64,000 nt of DNA from Nitrospirota bacterium (GCA_024275955.1 JAJRYD010000029.1:4500-68499); one strand, 5' to 3'; positions 8,011 to 43,164 are shown, counted from the stretch's first letter. The notes: generated by a model from the sequence alone, not told the origin. A program made the numbers and translations.

Positions 8011-9705
8011 TCAAGCCAACATCATATCTTTAACGGTTTTCCCCGCCGGTACCATAGGAAAAACATTTTCGCTCGGGTCGCAGACAAACTCCATAAATAC
8101 CGGCTTGTTAACGGAGAGCCCCTTTTTAATTACACTTTTTACTTCGGAGGTTTTGGTAGCTCTAAGGCCTACCGCGCCGTATGCCTCTGCCAGCTTTACG
8201 AAGTCTGGGTAATTAGGCATTATGCTGGAGGAATACCTCTTGCCGTGGAAGAACTCCTGCCACTGCCGAACCATGCCTAGTGTTCCATTATTAAGGATAG
8301 CTACCTTGACGTTAAGCCCATTCTCGATAGCGGTTGCCAGCTCCTGTATGTTCATCTGTATGCTTCCATCTCCGGCTATGCATATAACCAGTCTTTTTTG
8401 GTCGGCCGCCTGAGCGCCAAGCGCCGCTGGGAAACCAAACCCCATAGTCCCAAGCCCGCCGGAGGAGAGAAATGTCCTCGGCTCGGTGAAGCTGAGGAAC
8501 TGCGCCGCCCACATTTGCGCCTGTCCTACTTCTGTCGAGTAGATAGGGCTTTTGTCTTTCGCAAATTCATCTATAGCTTCGATAACCTGCTGAGGTTTTA
8601 TCTTTCCATCTTTTTTTGCCGGTTTGTATTTAAGCGGGTATCTTTTTTTCCATTCGGCTATCTGGGTAAGCCAGTCCTTATGTTTCTCTTTCCAGCCGGT
8701 TTTGTCTTTTTGAACATGCTGGTTTAGCTTTTTCATTATGTCCAAGAGGTCGCCGACCACAGGTATATCGGCGGAAACATTTTTGCCTATTGAGCCGGGG
8801 TCGATATCTACATGGACAACTTTACTGCTAGGCGAAAACTGATCCAGCTTTCCGGTAACTCTGTCGTCGAAACGGGAGCCGAGTGCTAAAAGCAGATCTG
8901 TCTCGTGGACAGCCATGTTTGCCGAATAGGTGCCGTGCATGCCGAGCATTCCAAGCGAGATTGCGTTATCGCTTGGGAAAGCGCCCATTCCCATAAGTGT
9001 GGTGGTGACAGGTATTTTGGTCTTCATCGCGAACTTATAAAGCTCTTTGCCGGCGTTGGCCGTTATCATTCCGCCGCCGATATAAAGCACAGGCTTCGAG
9101 GCCGATTTTATAGCCTGAAAAGCTTTTTTAATCTGTGCAGGGTGGCCTTCGTAAGTAGGGTGATAGCTTCTTATAGAAACGCTTTTGGGGTACGAGAAGT
9201 CGGCCGTAGCTAGAAGGACGTTTTTGGGCAAATCTATTAGCACAGGTCCTGGCTTTCCGGTGGTCGCTATGTATAGGCCTTCCTTAATCGTCTTCGCTAA
9301 GTCGCGGACATCCCTAACTAAAAATGAATGTTTTGTACATGGTCTGGTTATTCCTATTATATCGGCCTCTTGGAAAGCGTCGTTTCCTATCATCTCTACA
9401 TTTACCTGTCCGGTAAATACAAGGAGAGGTATTGAGTCCATATAGGCGTTGGCTATGCCTGTAACTGTGTTCGTAGCTCCCGGCCCGCTTGTTACAACGC
9501 AGATGCCGCACCTGCCTGTCGCCCGGGAATAACCATCCGCCATATGAACGGCACCTTGCTCGTGCCGTACGCGCAGATGCTTAAGCTTGGACTTGTACAG
9601 CGCGTCGTAAAGCGGAAGCACAGCTCCTCCGGGGTAGCCGAATATTAGGTCAACCCCTTCTTTTAGAAGGCTTTCCACGAAAATTTGCGCGCCAGAGAGC
9701 TTCAT
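8011..9705 (-). CDS. ilvB: Acetolactate synthase large (catalytic) subunit, thiamine-pyrophosphate dependent
   Basis: TPP-enzyme N-terminal, middle and C-terminal domains are present, with a GDG..QMN TPP-binding motif. Confidence 0.95.
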   Translation of the reverse strand: MKLSGAQIFVESLLKEGVDLIFGYPGGAVLPLYDALYKSKLKHLRVRHEQGAVHMADGYSRATGRCGICVVTSGPGATNTVTGIANAYMDSIPLLVFTGQVNVEMIGNDAFQEADIIGITRPCTKHSFLVRDVRDLAKTIKEGLYIATTGKPGPVLIDLPKNVLLATADFSYPKSVSIRSYHPTYEGHPAQIKKAFQAIKSASKPVLYIGGGMITANAGKELYKFAMKTKIPVTTTLMGMGAFPSDNAISLGMLGMHGTYSANMAVHETDLLLALGSRFDDRVTGKLDQFSPSSKVVHVDIDPGSIGKNVSADIPVVGDLLDIMKKLNQHVQKDKTGWKEKHKDWLTQIAEWKKRYPLKYKPAKKDGKIKPQQVIEAIDEFAKDKSPIYSTEVGQAQMWAAQFLSFTEPRTFLSSGGLGTMGFGFPAALGAQAADQKRLVICIAGDGSIQMNIQELATAIENGLNVKVAILNNGTLGMVRQWQEFFHGKRYSSSIMPNYPDFVKLAEAYGAVGLRATKTSEVKSVIKKGLSVNKPVFMEFVCDPSENVFPMVPAGKTVKDMMLA

Positions 9706-16884: not shown

Positions 16885-17736
16885 ATGCGTTTATTGTCGC
16901 TGATACTAAAGGATATTCGGATAGAGCATACGCTCTTTGCTATGCCGTTTGCCGTTATGAGTGCCTTTATAGCGTCTGGCGGGCTTCCGGCCGGCAGGGA
17001 AATTATGCTTCTTTTGCTTGCGCTTGTTTTCGCAAGGAGCGCGGCGATGGCGTTTAACAGGCTTGTCGATGCCAAATTCGACATGACCAACCCGAGGACA
17101 GAGGGCAGGCCGCTTGCTTCCGGCAAAGCAGGGGTTAAAAGCTATCTTATATTCGTTGTCGTAATGTCGGTTTGCTTTATCGTTACGGCAAAGTCTTTAA
17201 ACGAGCTGGCATATTTCCTTTCTCCTCTCGCGCTACTTATAGTTTTTTTCTACTCGCTTACCAAAAGGTTCACCGCCTACTCGCATTTCTTTTTGGGCTT
17301 CGCGTTGGCGCTCTCCCCTGTGGGGGCATGGGTCGCCATAACGGGAGAGATAGGAACCGAGTCTCTTTTGCTTGGTCTTGCGGTAATCTTCTGGCTTGCA
17401 GGGCTCGATATTATCTACTCGTGCCAAGATGTCGCGCACGATAAGGAATTAGGGCTGTACTCGATACCGTCACGGTTTGGCGTAAAGAAAGCTCTTTTCT
17501 ACTCGTCGCTCTCTCATCTGGTGATGGTTGCTTTTTTGATATTTCTCTTTGGCATCACTCCGCGTCTCGGGCCGATTTTTCTTTTAGGCCTCGCTTTTAC
17601 CTCTGCCTTTCTCTGGTACGAGCATAGCCTTGTAAAGCCTAACGACCTGCGGAAAGTAAACAGCGCCTTTTTTAACGTGAACGGAATAATATCGGTGGGG
17701 CTTATGGTCTTTGTGATAGCGGACATGCTTTTATGA
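16885..17736 (+). CDS. UbiA-family aromatic prenyltransferase (4-hydroxybenzoate polyprenyltransferase/MqnP-like)
   Basis: It carries the motif ARSAAMAFNRLVDAKFD, a second Asp-rich motif (CQDVAHDKELG), and about eight transmembrane segments. Confidence 0.75.
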   Translation: MRLLSLILKDIRIEHTLFAMPFAVMSAFIASGGLPAGREIMLLLLALVFARSAAMAFNRLVDAKFDMTNPRTEGRPLASGKAGVKSYLIFVVVMSVCFIVTAKSLNELAYFLSPLALLIVFFYSLTKRFTAYSHFFLGFALALSPVGAWVAITGEIGTESLLLGLAVIFWLAGLDIIYSCQDVAHDKELGLYSIPSRFGVKKALFYSSLSHLVMVAFLIFLFGITPRLGPIFLLGLAFTSAFLWYEHSLVKPNDLRKVNSAFFNVNGIISVGLMVFVIADMLL

Positions 17737-18464
17737 CGGAAACTAACGGGAAAGATAAAAGAGAAGGACACCGCAAAAGGCTTAGAGAAAAGTTTTTAGA
17801 GCATGGCCTTGAAAAGTTTACCGACGAGGAGATAGTCGAGCTGTTGCTGACTCTTGCTACGCCGAGGAAAGACTGCAAGCAGGCGGCAAGGGAGGCATTA
17901 AAAACTTTTGGAACGCTCCGCAACGTGCTGGAGGCCGACCTCGATTCGTTGACGGAGATAAAAGATATAGGCCCTTCCAACGCTTTTGGCATTAAGTTTA
18001 TCCATCAGGTTACGAAAAAGTTTCTGCGCGACAGAATGATAGAGAAAAGGGCGTTTCATTCTTCCGATGACCTTCTTGACTATCTTAACCACTCTATGAG
18101 GTCGCTTAAGAGAGAGGTTTTTCAGATTATATATCTTGACGCGGTTGACAGGATAATTGACGAAGAAATCATAGCAGTAGGCACGGCGACGGAGGTGCCG
18201 GTCAGCCCCCAGCAGATAGTCGAGCGGGCGGTAAAGCGCGGCGCGGCGAATATTATGATAGCGCACAACCATCCGGGCGGCGAGGCGGAACCTTCGGAGG
18301 ACGATAAGGCTATGACGCGCGAAACGGTTTTTGTCTGCGGCATGATGAAGCTAAAGCTAAGGGAGCATGCGATTGTCGCTCCGCGCGGCCACTTTAGTTT
18401 TTCAAAGGAAGGTCTTATCGCCGAGTATGAGCATCAGCTCCGCAAGGTGCAAAAGAAGATTTAA
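17733..18464 (+). CDS. radC: RadC-like JAB/MPN domain protein (UPF0758)
   Basis: It has a helix-hairpin-helix N-terminus and a JAMM motif (HNHPGGEAEPSEDD). It overlaps the upstream gene by 4 nt. Confidence 0.8.
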   Translation: MTETNGKDKREGHRKRLREKFLEHGLEKFTDEEIVELLLTLATPRKDCKQAAREALKTFGTLRNVLEADLDSLTEIKDIGPSNAFGIKFIHQVTKKFLRDRMIEKRAFHSSDDLLDYLNHSMRSLKREVFQIIYLDAVDRIIDEEIIAVGTATEVPVSPQQIVERAVKRGAANIMIAHNHPGGEAEPSEDDKAMTRETVFVCGMMKLKLREHAIVAPRGHFSFSKEGLIAEYEHQLRKVQKKI

Positions 18465-19351
18465 CAAGTAGAGCTATCAGTTGTCTGCCTGATTTTTTCA
18501 GGTAGGGCAGGTAGGTCTTTTTCAGTCAGCAGGGCTAATCTAGCTTTTGGGGCGAAGGCATATCTTCCGACCCTTCTGATTGATAGTTTTATAAAGTCTT
18601 CCATCCATTTTTCTTCTCCAACCCCGAAGTCTCTTTTTGGATTTGCTTTTCTGGAGGTTTCTTCGTTTCCGACGACTGATGTGAGATACCCAAAGTCATT
18701 TAAAATGGTGAGGCTTATTTTAAATTTTCTGCTTGCTTTGCATCGGTTCTGTCGGTGGTGATCTTCCGCAATATCTTTGTTCTCGCAACTTTTTTTGTCG
18801 CATTTGCAGATATCACTGGCTTCTTTTTCCAAAATGGTTAGGCAGGTATAGCCGATATCGGTTAGGCGGGCACTCCCTTTTTTATAAGTTTCGAGTAGTT
18901 TAAGCATTATTCTTACTGTCGAAGAGAATTGGAATTTTTCAGGTGGTGAAGGGTAAGCTCCTGCTTGAATATTCCGCGACATTGGGCATTCTGCTGAGAC
19001 CGGCCGCCTCGTATACTGATGGGCTAAACTGCCATCGGCTCTCTCTTTTAGAATGCCGGCATTTTTATATTTAAATCTTGTCCCATAAAGATTATGTTTC
19101 AAAATGATTTCAGCTTCCCACGCTAGTACAAAATCTTTAACATGCGACTTGGCTTCCTCGATATCTTTAAAATATTTTTTGTCTTTGAATTGTATTGTCA
19201 ATTTTCCGTCGGTATGAGCTTCGTCTGTTTGTTCTAGGATGGCTGTAAAGTCTTCGTATTCCTTTATGATAGGTTCTGGATTGTCGAAAAGCATTGGGGA
19301 TGGTGTTAGCAGGCTGTACGTAAGCTTCTCGACATAAATAGTTTCAGCCAT
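18461..19351 (-). CDS. Hypothetical protein with a Cys cluster, encoded immediately downstream of hicB-hicA
   Basis: The 296-aa ORF has no recognisable domain. A Cys cluster (CKCDKKSCENK...C) is present. Its start codon abuts the hicA stop with no gap. It looks AT-richer than the flanks. Confidence 0.45.
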   Translation of the reverse strand: MAETIYVEKLTYSLLTPSPMLFDNPEPIIKEYEDFTAILEQTDEAHTDGKLTIQFKDKKYFKDIEEAKSHVKDFVLAWEAEIILKHNLYGTRFKYKNAGILKERADGSLAHQYTRRPVSAECPMSRNIQAGAYPSPPEKFQFSSTVRIMLKLLETYKKGSARLTDIGYTCLTILEKEASDICKCDKKSCENKDIAEDHHRQNRCKASRKFKISLTILNDFGYLTSVVGNEETSRKANPKRDFGVGEEKWMEDFIKLSIRRVGRYAFAPKARLALLTEKDLPALPEKIRQTTDSSTC

Positions 19352-19576
19352 TTATTTACAGTTTTCCAAAAACTGTTCCGTTGTTAGGCCTGCTCTGGAA
19401 ATCAATGCCCTTAAGGTACCCCTTGCGACTGTTTGATGGTTTGGTACCGAAAGTGTGGCTATATGGCCATCTTTGGTGAGGATAATATGCGAACCTCTTT
19501 GGCGTACTACCTGCCATCCGAGCCTTTCGAATGCTTTTACTATTTTCTTGGGTCGTAAAAGCGGAAGGGGCGGCAA
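19352..19576 (-). CDS. hicA: HicA-family mRNA interferase toxin (YcfA-like)
   Basis: The 74-aa protein carries RGSHIILTKDGHIATLSVPNH, which fits the HicA signature (GSH....G....vP.H). Confidence 0.8.
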   Translation of the reverse strand: MPPLPLLRPKKIVKAFERLGWQVVRQRGSHIILTKDGHIATLSVPNHQTVARGTLRALISRAGLTTEQFLENCK

Positions 19577-19783
19577 CTAAGCGGGGATCTCTATGTCGCG
19601 TGTAGTTACTGTTGGCGACATTCCCTGCTCTTCGCGTGCGGCAATACATTCTTTTGCCGCTTCCATAATGTTTTTCATTGCTTCATCCATTGTTTTGCCC
19701 TGTGATATGCAACCGGGAATAGACGGACATTCGGCGATGAATATTCCATCCTCGTCTGTAACAATAGTAACCTGCAGTTTCAT
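19577..19783 (-). CDS. hicB: HicB-family antitoxin (UPF0150 N-domain only); the start is taken at the internal Met of the 96-aa ORF
   Basis: MKLQVTIVTDEDGIFIAECPSIPGCISQGKTMDEAMKNIMEAAKECI matches the HicB/UPF0150 fold signature. The stop abuts the hicA start. Confidence 0.7.
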   Translation of the reverse strand: MKLQVTIVTDEDGIFIAECPSIPGCISQGKTMDEAMKNIMEAAKECIAAREEQGMSPTVTTRDIEIPA

Positions 19784-19823
19784 AAAAGCTCCAATATCGT
19801 ACAGTTTATGAACCTCTTGTAGC

Positions 19824-21134
19824 CTACCTCTTGTCCATAGGTATGTAGCTTCTTGTTGCCGCTCCATCGTACAGCTGTCTCGGCCTGCCGATTACCCGTT
19901 TGGGGTCTTGTATCATTTCCGCCCATTGCGCCATCCAGCCGACCATCCTGCCCATAGTAAAGACTACGGTAAACATGTTGACCGGAATTCTTATCGCCTT
20001 GTAGGTTATGCCGGAGTAGAAGTCTACATTAGGGAAAAGCTTTCTCTCAACGAAGTAATCGTCTTTCATCGCTATCTCTTCCAGCCGTAGGGCTATCTCT
20101 AACAGCGGGTCGTTGCCGTCGGTTTTTTCTATTATGTCTCTCGACATTTTTTTGATAAGTTTCGCGCGTGGGTCGTAGTTTTTGTAAACCCTATGTCCAA
20201 AACCCATCAGGCGGAAGGAATCGTCTTTGTTTTTTGCTTTGTCTATAAATTTAGGGATGTTTTTCACGTCGCCTATCTCTTCCAGCATAGTGAGTACAGC
20301 CTCGTTTGCTCCGCCGTGCGCCGGCCCCCAAAGCGCGCCGACACCTGCCGAAGCGGCCGCGAACGGGTTTGCTTCCGAAGAGCCGGCAAGCCGTACCGTC
20401 GATGTCGATGCGTTTTGCTCGTGGTCGGCATGGAGAATAAGTATAAGGTCTAGCGCTTTTGCATGTAGCGGGTCTACCTCGTACTTTTCGGCAGGTACAG
20501 AGAACATCATATGGAGGAAGTTCTCCGCGTAGCCTAGTTTGTTATCGGGGTAGTTGATAGGCTGTCCTATAGAGTATTTGTAGGCCGCCGCCGCTATCGT
20601 TGTTATTTTTGCTATCAGCCTGTGCGCCGAAATTTCCTGATGTTTCGGGTTATGTATCTCTAGCGAGTCGTGGTAAAAGGCGCTAAGCGCGCCGACCATG
20701 CCGACCATGATAGCCATAGGGTGGGCATCGCGCCTGAATCCGGCTAGGAATGATTTGAAGCCTTCGTGTACCATCGAGTGGCGGGTGATGATGCCGGCGA
20801 ATTTGTCGTACTCCTCTTTTGCGGGCAACTCTCCGTGGAGAAGAAGGTAGCAGACCTCTAGATAGTTGCTTTTTTCTGCCAGCTCTTCGATGCCGTATCC
20901 ACGATAGAGGAGTATTCCTTTTTCGCCGTCTATGAAAGTTATCTTGCTTTTGCAACTGGCGGTTGACTTAAAGCCGGGGTCGTATGTGAATATCCCCATT
21001 TTTGAGTAGAGCGTGCGTATATCAGCCACGGATGGGCCGTGAGTGGGGTGCAAGAGAGGAAATTCCTCGCTGGCGCCTGTGGCATTGTTGGTGATTGTTA
21101 TACTCTCTTTTCCCATTATCGCCTCCTTAAACAA
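19824..21134 (-). CDS. gltA: Citrate synthase
   Basis: It has the citrate synthase fold signature ([14 protein letters not shown]) and catalytic His/Asp residues. Confidence 0.95.
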
Positions 21135-39564: not shown

Positions 39565-39860
39565 TGCATAAGGAAGATATTTTAGATAGCCTTAAATCGG
39601 TTATCGACCCAGAACTCGGCATAAACATAGTCGATTTGGGTTTGATCTATAATGTTAATGTCAGCGGTAACGACGTTTTTGTTACGATGATGATGACTTC
39701 ACAGGCTTGCCCGATGGGAGACCTCCTTAAAATCGAAGTGGTTGATGCCATCAGGAAGATTTTTCCGTCCGCGGGAAAGGTAGAAGCAGTTCTTACGGTA
39801 GATCCGCCGTGGACAAACGAAATGATGTCGGGCGACGCAAGGAAACAGCTTGGACTCTAA
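39564..39860 (+). CDS. DUF59 / MIP18-family Fe-S cluster assembly protein (SufT/PaaD-like)
   Basis: It carries the motif LKSVIDPELGINIVDLGLIY...MTSQACPMG. Confidence 0.8.
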   Translation: MHKEDILDSLKSVIDPELGINIVDLGLIYNVNVSGNDVFVTMMMTSQACPMGDLLKIEVVDAIRKIFPSAGKVEAVLTVDPPWTNEMMSGDARKQLGL

Positions 39861-39868
39861 AGGTTTCG

Positions 39869-40954
39869 ATGTTCCTTTATAAAGTAAGGTTTCCTCTGCT
39901 TGCTGTCGGTCTGCTCTCGCTTATCGGCGCGCTCTACTCCGGCCTTATAAGGCTCGGTTTCGATCTGCCGTTTATACATTTCGATTTACCGGAGGCGCAT
40001 GGGCCTCTTATGATTGCCGCCTTTCTCGGTACCGTGATAGGGCTGGAAAGGGCTGTAGCGCTAGAGACACCGTGGGGTTATCTATCTCCGCTTCTTGCCG
40101 GTGTTGGCGGTCTGCTGGCATTGCTTGGTGTTTCTAACGGTGCGCCGCAGTTACTTATCTTTCTTTCGAGCATAGTTCTTATCTTGATGTATGCCGTAGT
40201 TCTAAAGCGGCAGTTAGAGTTTTTTAATGTCATCATGGCGCTTGGCGCTGTCTCTCTTTTTATCGGAAACCTTCTCTGGCTATCCGGCGAGCCTATATAC
40301 AACTTTGTGCTTTGGTGGGTAGCGTTTCTTGTGCTGACGATAGCGGGAGAGAGGCTGGAATTAAGCCGTGTGCTTAGCCATAGCAAAAATATTCTCTCTT
40401 TATTTTCTGTTGCTGTTGCTGTTTTTCTTTTAGGTATTGCGTTAGAGCGGTTCTTGCCCGGCATCGGTGTGCGGATAGCAGGCGTTGGTATGATTTTCAT
40501 TTCGCTCTGGCTACTCACCTTCGGTGTTGCAAGAGTTACGGTAAGGCAGAAAGGCCTTACACGGTATGTGGCTGTCTGTCTTTTGGCCGGCTACTTTTGG
40601 CTGATAATCGGCGGAGCTATAGCGGTAGTTGCCGGCGAGCTGGAGCCGGGCTTTGTGTACGACGCATTCTTGCACGCACTCTTTTTAGGCTTTACATTTA
40701 CCATGATTTTCGGGCATGCGCCGATAATCTTTCCGGCGGTATTGCGGATTCCTGTTCCGTATAGAGCCGGCTTTTATTCGCACCTTCTGCTTTTGCATGT
40801 TTCGCTTTCGCTTAGAGTAGGCGGCGATATCTTTGACCTTGACGAACTGCATGTATGGGGAGGGGTCGGCAACGTGGCGGCTCTTATACTATTTCTCGTC
40901 AACACAGTTTCATCGGTTGTAAGAGGTCTTCTGGCAAAACCTGCTAAGGGGTAA
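39869..40954 (+). CDS. Polytopic integral membrane protein of unknown function
   Basis: About ten hydrophobic helices are present. I placed the start at the ATG 8 nt after the DUF59 stop, because the longer ORF overlaps DUF59. Confidence 0.5.
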   Translation: MFLYKVRFPLLAVGLLSLIGALYSGLIRLGFDLPFIHFDLPEAHGPLMIAAFLGTVIGLERAVALETPWGYLSPLLAGVGGLLALLGVSNGAPQLLIFLSSIVLILMYAVVLKRQLEFFNVIMALGAVSLFIGNLLWLSGEPIYNFVLWWVAFLVLTIAGERLELSRVLSHSKNILSLFSVAVAVFLLGIALERFLPGIGVRIAGVGMIFISLWLLTFGVARVTVRQKGLTRYVAVCLLAGYFWLIIGGAIAVVAGELEPGFVYDAFLHALFLGFTFTMIFGHAPIIFPAVLRIPVPYRAGFYSHLLLLHVSLSLRVGGDIFDLDELHVWGGVGNVAALILFLVNTVSSVVRGLLAKPAKG

Positions 40955-41077
40955 AGGGGGGGCTGGTCTGCTTTGTTCGTTCATCCAGCTTCAAGCGGTA
41001 AGCTGGATTTTCTCTCATATTTGCTGATAAACTTACCGCGTGGCTGTTAAGGAAATAGTATAAGGGAATAAAGAAGT

Positions 41078-42331
41078 ATGAGCCAGAATTTACGACCGAT
41101 AATCGAGCGCTATAAAAAGGATGGGGAGGCTGTTTATAACACTTGGTTTGTAAATAACGACGAGCGTCTCAAAGCGTTTCGTTCTATTAGGAGAGGCGTG
41201 CAGGATGTTATACGGGATATAAAAGAGAAAAATTTTGGGAATGACTTTAAAGGCTCTTCACTGGAGTTTGTCTTAAACTGTATTACAGAGCAAAAACAGG
41301 TTTTCATCGGCGCTTCGCATCCGTTTTACTGGAAACCGAAATTACGCATTCCTGATATTTATGAAAATGAGGATAACAAAGCCGCATTTGGACAATTTCT
41401 GGAAAACTGCCATAATTCCATCAGTGAAGAACAAATCTTAAAGGAAATAATTTTACTTAATCAGCGTAAGATTAAAGGTCTTGGTCCGGCCGTGGCCAAC
41501 ATCTTGTATTTTCTGCACCCAACGATAATTCCGCCTTTCAACACAGCTATAGTGAACGGCTTCAATCGCCTTTTTAAAGAAAAAATAAGACTGGGGTCAT
41601 GGGATGAATATCGGAAAATGCGCGCTGTTATTATGCATACAAATGCCGCCTTCAAGAATGATTTATCGAGCGATCTGGGCGCAATTTCCGGGTTTTTGTT
41701 TGATATCGGTGTTGGAAAAATTCATATCGGTGATGAACATACGCTTTCAGAAAAAGAAAAAACCAAAATTGAAAAGATGGTTAAAAACCGTCACCGCAAG
41801 GTAGTGGCGGAAAATGAAGAGGAAGATATCCATACAGAGATGCAGTACCATCTCTTAAAGATTGGCAATTCACTTGGCTATGATGTTATTAGCGCCTCAA
41901 ACGATAGGGCAAAATGCCATAAGGGTAAAAGTTTTTCTTTTATAAGCCTACCAAGCTTTCCTAAATTAGATGTTGGTGTTGATAAAGATACATTCAAAAC
42001 TATAGCTTTGATTGACGCTGTCTGGTTTAAAAAAGGCTCGAACAACATTGTATGTGCGTTTGAAGTGGAAAAGAGTACTTCCATCTATTCAGGAATTTTA
42101 AGATTAAAAGATTTATTCTATACATTTCCTAATAACCGACCGACGCTTTACTTGGTTATTCCCGACAATAGGGAAAAAGAGGTGATGCTACAATTAAACC
42201 GGCCGGCAATCAAAAATGGCGAAGTTGAAGTACGCTATATATTATTTTCCGATTTGAAACTGCATTGTGATTCAATATGCAAACTTGGGGAAAATAAAGA
42301 GATTATGAAAAAAATAGCCAAGGGTCTGTAG
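41078..42331 (+). CDS. Hypothetical protein with a C-terminal PD-(D/E)xK nuclease-like motif; candidate stand-alone defence or restriction-type nuclease
   Basis: A D...ExK core is present (TIALIDAVWF...12 aa...CAFEVEKSTSI). The N-terminal part has an HhH-like IKGLGPAVANILYFLHP. The gene is monocistronic, between a membrane-protein gene and lgt. Its composition is visibly AT-richer than the neighbours. Confidence 0.4.
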   Translation: MSQNLRPIIERYKKDGEAVYNTWFVNNDERLKAFRSIRRGVQDVIRDIKEKNFGNDFKGSSLEFVLNCITEQKQVFIGASHPFYWKPKLRIPDIYENEDNKAAFGQFLENCHNSISEEQILKEIILLNQRKIKGLGPAVANILYFLHPTIIPPFNTAIVNGFNRLFKEKIRLGSWDEYRKMRAVIMHTNAAFKNDLSSDLGAISGFLFDIGVGKIHIGDEHTLSEKEKTKIEKMVKNRHRKVVAENEEEDIHTEMQYHLLKIGNSLGYDVISASNDRAKCHKGKSFSFISLPSFPKLDVGVDKDTFKTIALIDAVWFKKGSNNIVCAFEVEKSTSIYSGILRLKDLFYTFPNNRPTLYLVIPDNREKEVMLQLNRPAIKNGEVEVRYILFSDLKLHCDSICKLGENKEIMKKIAKGL

Positions 42332-42387
42332 GGAAGACAACATAAGGAAGGAGTATCCCTCGACATCGGTCTCCGTTTTTATAAAAC

Positions 42388-43164
42388 CTACCCCTCTGCT
42401 TCCTCATCATGCTTGCTCTTTGCCAAAAGTTTGGCATAAAGGGCGGAGGCTACGGCGAGGGCAACTATGGCAACAGCTTGCGAAGTGCTAAATGGGCCGA
42501 TAAAACCGCGAGGGTCTCCCCGATATATTTCTATAGTAAACCTGCCGATTGCGTAGAGAATCATCCATAGCAAAAATATCTGCCCTTTAAATTGTCTGAA
42601 CCGTCTTACAGATATCAAAATAAGAAAGATTACCAATTCGTTTAGCGCCATGTAGAGCTGGGTTGGGTGTAGCGGTACGTTTAGCGGCGCGAGCGACGCG
42701 GGGTGCGTAAAGATTACGCTCCATGCCACATCGCTGACATCGCCGTAACAGCATCCGGCGCCGAAACAGCCGAGCCTCCCAAACATATGCCCAAGTGCTA
42801 GGGCAGGGGCTATAATGTCTGCCATCTTCCATGCTTCTATATTATGTTTTCTTACAAACCAGATGCTTGTGACTACCGAGCCGATGAACCCGCCGTAAAA
42901 GACAAGCCCGCCCTCCCATACCATAAAAACTTTTAGCGGGTTATGGATGTAGCTTGGCCATTCTATAAGCACATACATAATGCGCGCGCCTACAAGCGCC
43001 GAGAGTACTATATAGAAAGCTAGGTCTAGTGCTTTTTCTGGGTCTTCGCCTTCGGTTTTTGCTCTGCTGGCCATAAGGAAAGAGGCGACGAGAAAGCCTG
43101 TGGCGGCCATAAGGCCGTATGAATAAAGTTTTAGCGGGCCAATCTCGAATATTACAGGTAACAT
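42388..43164 (-). CDS. lgt: Prolipoprotein diacylglyceryl transferase
   Basis: The N-terminus reads LPVIFEIGPLKLYSYGLM and the Lgt signature G..GN..N.E..G is present (GRLGCFGAGCCYG). Confidence 0.9.
   Translation of the reverse strand: MLPVIFEIGPLKLYSYGLMAATGFLVASFLMASRAKTEGEDPEKALDLAFYIVLSALVGARIMYVLIEWPSYIHNPLKVFMVWEGGLVFYGGFIGSVVTSIWFVRKHNIEAWKMADIIAPALALGHMFGRLGCFGAGCCYGDVSDVAWSVIFTHPASLAPLNVPLHPTQLYMALNELVIFLILISVRRFRQFKGQIFLLWMILYAIGRFTIEIYRGDPRGFIGPFSTSQAVAIVALAVASALYAKLLAKSKHDEEAEG

Follow-up and report, generated by a model that had tools for sequence, protein, structure and literature searches.

A three-gene insert between convergent gltA and radC in a Nitrospirota bacterium carries a compact hicBA module and a member of an unnamed protein family

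When a gene without recognisable domains directly follows a toxin gene, is it a partner of the toxin-antitoxin pair or a passenger beside it? The question is raised by a 64,000-nt stretch of DNA from a Nitrospirota bacterium (GCA_024275955.1, JAJRYD010000029.1:4500-68499), which is called the window here and from whose first letter all positions are counted. On its minus strand, hicB, hicA and an open reading frame of 296 codons (ORF296) lie between the citrate synthase gene gltA and the gene radC. An earlier note on this DNA had taken radC as the mark of a mobile island and the third gene as a possible novel partner of the HicAB module. The evidence favours another account as the probable one, in which an acquired accessory segment carries a compact hicBA module of Class 2 together with ORF296 as independent cargo, with radC standing apart.

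The stretch from 18465 to 19823 (minus strand) is an insertion of about 1.36 kb into a variable intergenic spot, where related genomes have a short spacer between gltA and radC. The citrate synthases closest to that of the window in the protein collection (entries of 430 amino acids, aa) are 84, 82 and 80% identical to it. The first of these (84%) is encoded on a contig (L163/L164) labelled as belonging to a metagenome-assembled genome of a Nitrospinota bacterium, and the three related metagenomic contigs (L163, L167 and L168) are probably all from Nitrospinota; a citrate synthase search of genome contigs gave no match above 66% identity, and all the matches were from proteobacteria. In all three relatives gltA and radC are convergent neighbours, the identity of radC to that of the window being 71–72% in L163 and L168 and, for a 41-aa fragment, 71% in L167. 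Searches with tblastn found hicB, hicA and ORF296 to be absent from all three contigs. The gene order of L163/L164 (dinG-like helicase, DAHP synthase, gltA, radC, ubiA, uvrD) is the same as that of the window, and alignments of the junctions place the start of the extra DNA just past the gltA stop codon and its end at the radC stop codon.

The site itself varies across the lineage, the spacer between gltA and radC measuring 132 nt in L163, about 8 nt in L167 and about 650 nt in L168. A G+C-rich hairpin (TCCCCTCCTTGCGCG...CGCATAAGGAGGGGA; L163 9320–9356, z-score -3.1) lies between the convergent genes of L163 and is probably a bidirectional terminator; a hairpin of this type is missing between gltA and radC in the window. 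The L168 spacer (1659–2310) is repeat-bearing non-coding DNA, in which two 65-nt direct repeats, 91% alike, and a 40-nt imperfect inverted repeat were seen.

Base composition also sets the segment apart, and it is AT-richer than its flanks, as the earlier note had supposed. The G+C content of 18465–19823 is 0.425 and that of ORF296 is 0.409, lower than in gltA (0.503) and radC (0.493), and the G+C content of third codon positions is 0.38–0.44 in the segment against 0.56–0.60 in the flanking genes. Within the 64-kb window, the G+C content of ORF296 falls among the lowest 3.4% of stretches of the same size. This atypical composition is consistent with acquisition and, because of it, gain of the segment in the window is more likely than its loss in three relatives.

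The insert holds only hicB, hicA and ORF296, with no integrase or transposase inside; no repeats bracket it, and no tRNA genes were found in the 64-kb window. The insert thus shows none of the marks looked for in a transposon, an insertion sequence, an integrative element or an integron cassette. The segment would be better described as a small acquired accessory islet, or possibly a defence islet. Like defence islands and small accessory islets, it is a small, compositionally deviant insert between conserved housekeeping genes, and it likewise holds a toxin-antitoxin module and an uncharacterised gene with relatives that are often near restriction-modification, SIR2-like, SLOG and TIR genes. 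It differs from them in being tiny (three genes) and in lacking an integrase, a transposase, a tRNA gene and flanking repeats.

The downstream flank, radC (17733–18464, plus strand), is outside the insert and encodes the full-length housekeeping form of the protein. RadC scores 185.3 bits against the NCBIfam equivalog NF000642 (cut-off 180) and 183.9 against TIGR00608 (cut-off 133.85), and its Pfam matches (UPF0758_N, HhH and the RadC JAB domain) make up the full housekeeping architecture; an exact sequence look-up found no record of it. The radC start codon overlaps the ubiA stop codon by ATGA, and this ubiA-radC synteny convergent to gltA is kept in L163, with radC convergent to gltA in L167 and L168 as well. 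The equivalog score, the coupling to ubiA and the conserved synteny in relatives that lack the insert rule out the idea that radC marks, or belongs to, a mobile island; it is a bystander beside the insert.

Upstream, gltA (19824–21116, minus strand; 430 aa, Pfam Citrate_synt 1.6e-141) ends with a TAG stop codon at 19826–19824. A 40-nt spacer separates this stop from the ATG of hicB (19577–19783, minus strand; ATG at 19783, TAG at 19577), which encodes a 68-aa antitoxin. A GGAG Shine-Dalgarno motif, read from the sequence, lies inside the spacer at 19792–19789 (minus strand), 5 nt 5′ of the ATG. The hicB stop codon directly abuts, with zero gap and in the same reading frame, the TTG start of hicA (19352–19576, minus strand; TTG at 19576, TAA at 19352), which encodes a 74-aa toxin. 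The hicA stop codon in turn abuts, again with zero gap, the start of ORF296 (18461–19351, minus strand; ATG at 19351, TAA at 18461), an intact member of an unnamed family. ORF296 and radC are convergent, their stop codons sharing TTAA (a 4-nt overlap). The table of open reading frames and the minus-strand sequence agree with the stop-to-start order of hicB, hicA and the 296-aa frame that had been described beforehand, and with the contact between the hicA stop and the ORF296 start. That contact is not an artefact of start-codon choice, because the first residues of ORF296 align one to one with those of its family. Zero-gap or overlapping gene junctions are common in bacterial operons and, such junctions or overlaps being usual in compact hicBA modules, the coupling that had been singled out as remarkable does not exceed expectation.

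Signals for expression are few. At the junctions from gltA through hicB and hicA to ORF296, and at that of ORF296 with radC, no promoter- or terminator-like site exceeded shuffled expectation. Within the cassette a clear ribosome-binding site is seen only at hicB (the GGAG), with no comparable motif before hicA or ORF296. The three genes are probably co-transcribed and, because only hicB has a clear Shine-Dalgarno motif, termination-reinitiation coupling is the probable mode of translation for hicA and ORF296. An 11-nt inverted repeat (19776–19786 and 19805–19815, 10 of 11 positions complementary) was also seen to bracket the hicB start codon and its Shine-Dalgarno motif; folded as RNA, the repeat was no more stable than shuffled sequence (z-score -0.5), and a hairpin was rejected.

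Pfam matches to both proteins confirm the hicB-hicA pair. HicA matches HicA_toxin (PF07927; 2.7e-18, 66.2 bits, cut-off 27) over profile positions 2–58 of 58, as well as PHROG 353, annotated as toxin (4e-10). In published HicA structures, the conserved catalytic histidine sits in a G-x-H or G-S-H loop, and a G-S-H motif was assigned by eye at residues 28–30 of the window protein (RQRGSHIIL), the histidine being residue 30. HicA is predicted to be a small ribonuclease toxin with a double-stranded RNA-binding domain (dsRBD) fold. The TTG is its presumed start, no other start codon being in frame before the HicA domain; this agrees with the sequence and with plasmid homologues of 74–76 aa.

HicB matches HicB_lk_antitox (PF15919; 1.8e-7, 31.8 bits, cut-off 27) at profile positions 3–56 of 123, and PHROG 497, described as HicB-like (9.4e-9), while its score against UPF0150 (24.7 bits) is slightly under the cut-off of 27.3. 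The match covers the N-terminal half of the profile, which agrees with the earlier description of a 68-aa HicB with an N-domain only; what is present is a partial RNase H-like N-terminal domain, and the protein ends 10–12 residues past it. A Pfam scan of the 68-aa protein gave no match to a helix-turn-helix (HTH) or ribbon-helix-helix (RHH) DNA-binding domain. In this it differs from the classical HicB proteins of Gerdes Classes 3 and 4, which have a C-terminal HTH or RHH domain.

A module of this kind has been described before. In the Class 2 hicBA of Gerdes (2024, mBio 15:e03293-23; PMC10865869), hicB is upstream of hicA, HicB has 63–103 codons without a DNA-binding domain, HicA has 60–85, and the genes are close or overlapping. 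The window pair has the same order, a 68-aa HicB, a 74-aa HicA and abutting genes, and on these sequence features it is a compact Class 2 module, already a known kind. It differs from that class in the third co-directional gene that stands stop-to-start with hicA: terms such as "tricistronic", "three-gene" and "third gene" are absent from the text of PMC10865869, and none of its 14 contexts is described as tricistronic. According to the same article, Classes 1 and 2 are the most prevalent hicBA types and are without experimental analysis, their regulation without a DNA-binding domain being an open question; the heading of its section 13 reports HicA genes as often found in defence islands.

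A tblastn search of plasmids found homologues of hicBA on pP880101 of Rippkaea orientalis and Do28_1 of Desulfosarcina ovata, both annotated as HicB and HicA, with HicB proteins of 68–69 aa; these are the annotated modules nearest to that of the window. In Desulfosarcina the two genes meet as in the window, in frame and with zero gap, and neither of these two plasmid modules has a co-directional third gene beside it. At this junction in the window (19574–19579), the in-frame hicB TAG and hicA TTG are adjacent, so that read-through of the stop would yield a HicB-HicA fusion; such a hypothetical protein would resemble the fused Class 12 of Gerdes (2024).

The gene that sets the window apart from these modules, ORF296, belongs to a large family. 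A word-index homology search returned the query alone, which suggested an orphan, and one with the family profile returned four proteins. The orphan reading was overturned by an exhaustive HMMER scan of 1.84 billion representatives, which gave 662 relatives at E ≤ 1e-3 and 185 at E ≤ 1e-10 (best E 5.6e-20). Most are 250–270 aa long and about 30% identical to ORF296, and they align with it end to end; the closest is only 36% identical. An exact sequence look-up for ORF296 found no record. Source annotations of the family, where given, read "hypothetical protein". ORF296 has no match in Pfam, NCBIfam, PADLOC or PHROGs, and neither Pfam (ORF296 and 56 relatives) nor NCBIfam (the members scanned) recognises the family. 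The statement in the earlier note that the protein has no recognisable domains therefore stands as far as database matches go, but the protein is no orphan, as it sits in a large conserved family.

In an alignment of 57 sequences (family representatives P0002–P0150), W78 and R234-K235 are invariant and V7, L10 and Y12 nearly so. Also conserved are YPxPP at 133–137, then Y168, C170 and L171 in the motif (M)AYFCLT(V)LE, and G228, E246, W249 and, in TMxDLP, P281. ORF296 starts at the family start and retains all the invariant and near-invariant columns, including ARK, E..W and DLP. It has two lineage-specific inserts relative to the family, one of them a charged, cysteine-containing loop at about residues 175–200. 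The cysteines by which the 296-aa protein had been characterised are present, but they are no trait of the family: the C-x-C...C stretch falls in this variable loop, and C170 is the sole conserved cysteine. The N-terminal extensions of two members (P0068 and P0083) look like mis-called starts, and the C-terminal extension of another (P0029) has no Pfam match.

An AlphaFold2 model of ORF296 built with the alignment (predicted local distance difference test score, pLDDT, 89.1; predicted TM-score, pTM, 0.87) was used in place of a single-sequence model (pLDDT 45), which was discarded. It shows an N-terminal alpha/beta domain (about residues 1–130) and a helical C-terminal domain (about 144–296). 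Foldseek found no credible match to it in the PDB or BFVD, the best TM-scores being about 0.2; at that level the top matches, tetracycline destructases and flavin monooxygenases, were rejected. A sequence profile search of the PDB gave only a dynein light chain (E = 0.38), a chance match. The remote-homology check that had been proposed for the 296-aa protein thus yielded a family and a confident model, but no fold match in the PDB or BFVD. The family is a sizeable and widespread group of unnamed, two-domain proteins of about 260 aa, and it is the only new element at this locus.

Whether these proteins accompany HicAB elsewhere was examined in 82 loci with family members; the metagenome loci among them were gathered through the subset with the MAYFCLTV motif, and the sample is biased to that sub-branch. 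No HicA was found among the open reading frames of at least 40 aa in the 82 loci (phmmer with the HicA and HicB of the window), a single HicB-like frame lies 5 kb from the family gene, and neither HicA nor HicB stands beside the family gene in any locus. When 60 upstream and 56 downstream neighbours were scanned with Pfam, the listing of the 25 most frequent families included neither HicA nor HicB, and neither appeared in a protein-by-protein scan of ten small upstream frames. All-against-all BLAST of the neighbours revealed no recurrent partner family, only near-identical duplicate loci from different samples. Among 72,556 plasmid records there is one copy of the family gene, a solitary "hypothetical protein" of Paludisphaera, and among 50,697 phage records there is none. 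Most members are solitary, or next to housekeeping or opposite-strand genes. The co-occurrence check thus gave no support to the proposal that the third gene is a novel HicAB partner, in the sense of a conserved association. The gene does occur apart from hicAB, as the earlier note had expected of an unrelated gene; the housekeeping annotation expected with it is replaced by "hypothetical protein".

The neighbours are of mixed types. As in the window, housekeeping genes make up many of them, and defence-type genes are frequent, namely Type ISP, MmeI and Eco57I enzymes, Type I HsdM and HsdS, and TIR/ThsB-like, DUF4145, DUF3800 and DUF2971 proteins. Six N6_Mtase matches lie within 5 kb of the family gene, and so concern at most 6 of the 20 non-redundant long loci. 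In four independent settings, HicA of the window included, the gap between the family gene and an upstream defence-type gene is zero or negative. In L149 (1221–3969), a SIR2-like gene, the family gene and a DUF3800 gene follow each other with 4-nt overlaps on both sides; in L156 (834–2449) and L159, a SLOG cluster 2 gene upstream overlaps the family gene by 7 nt; and in L131 (3173–6768) and L143, an MmeI-like gene upstream has a 4-nt overlap or zero gap. The couplings in L149, L156 and L131 may represent uncatalogued multi-gene conflict systems.

These couplings speak for the main rival account, a doubtful one, in which ORF296 is a true third component and its family a promiscuous sensor, regulator or adaptor downstream of effectors of the HicA, SIR2-like, SLOG and MmeI types. 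Such a protein would control the release or expression of the effector, and its helical C-terminal domain could supply the regulation that Class 2 HicB lacks, a point that PMC10865869 leaves open for Classes 1 and 2. A consensus in the C-terminal part of the family (R..AA..Y.I...VL..LG.LTS) looks helix-turn-helix-like by eye, and restriction-modification genes are common nearby, as the N6_Mtase matches illustrate. Against this, Pfam, the PDB profile search and Foldseek detected neither an HTH nor any other domain, most members stand alone or beside housekeeping or opposite-strand genes with no recurrent partner family, and no HicA or HicB adjoins the family gene in the 82 loci. The family is also absent from the known and candidate defence models of PADLOC: in PADLOC-DB v2, no model matched ORF296, HicA, HicB or RadC (E ≤ 1), nor one of the 57 family members (E ≤ 0.01). 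The enrichment of defence genes concerns small numbers with no formal background control, and the coupling to them is suggestive. A fuller form of the same idea, that the family is a new conflict-system component with a fold outside the PDB, coupled as a shared sensor or regulator to unrelated effectors and providing the missing control of hicBA in the window, seems unlikely.

Panacea/SocA domains are hyperpromiscuous antitoxin or accessory domains, and offer an analogy to a family that is found tightly downstream of effectors as unrelated as HicA, SIR2-like, SLOG and MmeI-like proteins. The ORF296 family differs from them in having no SocA_Panacea match in Pfam and in consisting mostly of solitary members. 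On another contig, from a more distant relative with different synteny (L170), a gene with weak or faint SocA_Panacea and HTH_19 matches (8022–8798) was noticed about 5.6 kb from gltA.

The layout of the window also resembles that of toxin-antitoxin-chaperone (TAC) operons, which include HicAB-type members: three small co-directional genes, tightly coupled, in the order antitoxin, toxin and third gene. ORF296 would then be an antitoxin chaperone. The likeness does not go beyond layout, as neither ORF296 nor its 56 relatives have a SecB-like Pfam match, no SecB structure is among the 50 Foldseek PDB matches listed, the 68-aa HicB is without a C-terminal chaperone-addiction extension, and the family is unlinked to toxin-antitoxin pairs elsewhere. 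With a third protein that is not SecB-like and an antitoxin without the extension, a TAC system was rejected and is hardly to be credited here.

It is also rather improbable that ORF296 is a stand-alone, single-gene defence, abortive-infection or other conflict-system protein that came to lie next to hicBA through a shared hotspot. The usual solitude of family members fits such a role, as does their frequent proximity to restriction-modification, TIR/ThsB-like, DUF4145, DUF3800 and DUF2971 genes, and the variable gltA-radC spacer of the relatives would suit a hotspot. However, no PADLOC model matches the family and no catalytic motif is recognisable among its conserved columns; its absence from phages and near-absence from plasmids provide no independent link to conflicts between mobile elements. 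This explanation overlaps with that of an acquired segment carrying independent cargo, differing only in the defence function that it assigns.

Several points weigh against the acquired-segment account, in which hicBA and ORF296 are independent. The family gene is coupled, at zero or negative gap, to SIR2-like, SLOG cluster 2 and MmeI-like genes, which hints at a partner role with varied effectors. Zero gap and the lack of a Shine-Dalgarno motif make expression of ORF296 depend on translation of hicA, and a functional link could follow from this. The best relative of ORF296 is only 36% identical, and the exact trio may exist elsewhere. A lone HicA neighbour might escape a listing of the 25 most frequent Pfam families, though the phmmer searches and the protein-by-protein table argue otherwise, and loss of the cassette from the relatives is formally conceivable, though the deviant composition favours gain.

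With these points included, the acquired-segment account remains the probable one, and events at the locus may be pictured as follows. In a host that is probably Nitrospinota-like, a horizontally acquired segment of about 1.36 kb would have taken the place of a short spacer with a hairpin that separated gltA from its convergent neighbour radC. One part of it would be a self-contained, compact hicBA, in which the 68-aa HicB is predicted to neutralise HicA by direct binding. The other would be ORF296, an independent cargo gene, the relatives of which are normally solitary and often have variable surroundings or neighbours of the defence type. The genes would be transcribed by polymerase reading through from gltA, or from a weak promoter at the 3′ end of that gene, and the close packing of the three genes would reflect operon compaction in a small islet, with no dedicated three-component system.

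Elsewhere in the window, the lowest G+C content of the 64 kb was seen at about 40850–42400 (0.38–0.40 in stretches of 1359 nt), across two open reading frames on the plus strand (39809–40954 and 41078–42331). This may be another acquired segment.

The hicBA part of the insert is routine, one more example of a compact Class 2 module. The relatives without the insert give a clean before-and-after view, in which a three-gene islet took the place of the terminator-bearing spacer of two convergent housekeeping genes. The family of ORF296 comprises 662 cluster representatives and has a confidently predicted fold with no relative in Pfam, NCBIfam, PADLOC, the PDB or BFVD; uncharacterised families of this sort are common in metagenomic data, and the link of this one to defence is circumstantial. 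Should members of the family turn out to act in defence, or as promiscuous regulatory partners, they would be a new element of defence islands, and would bear on how HicB antitoxins that lack a DNA-binding domain are regulated.

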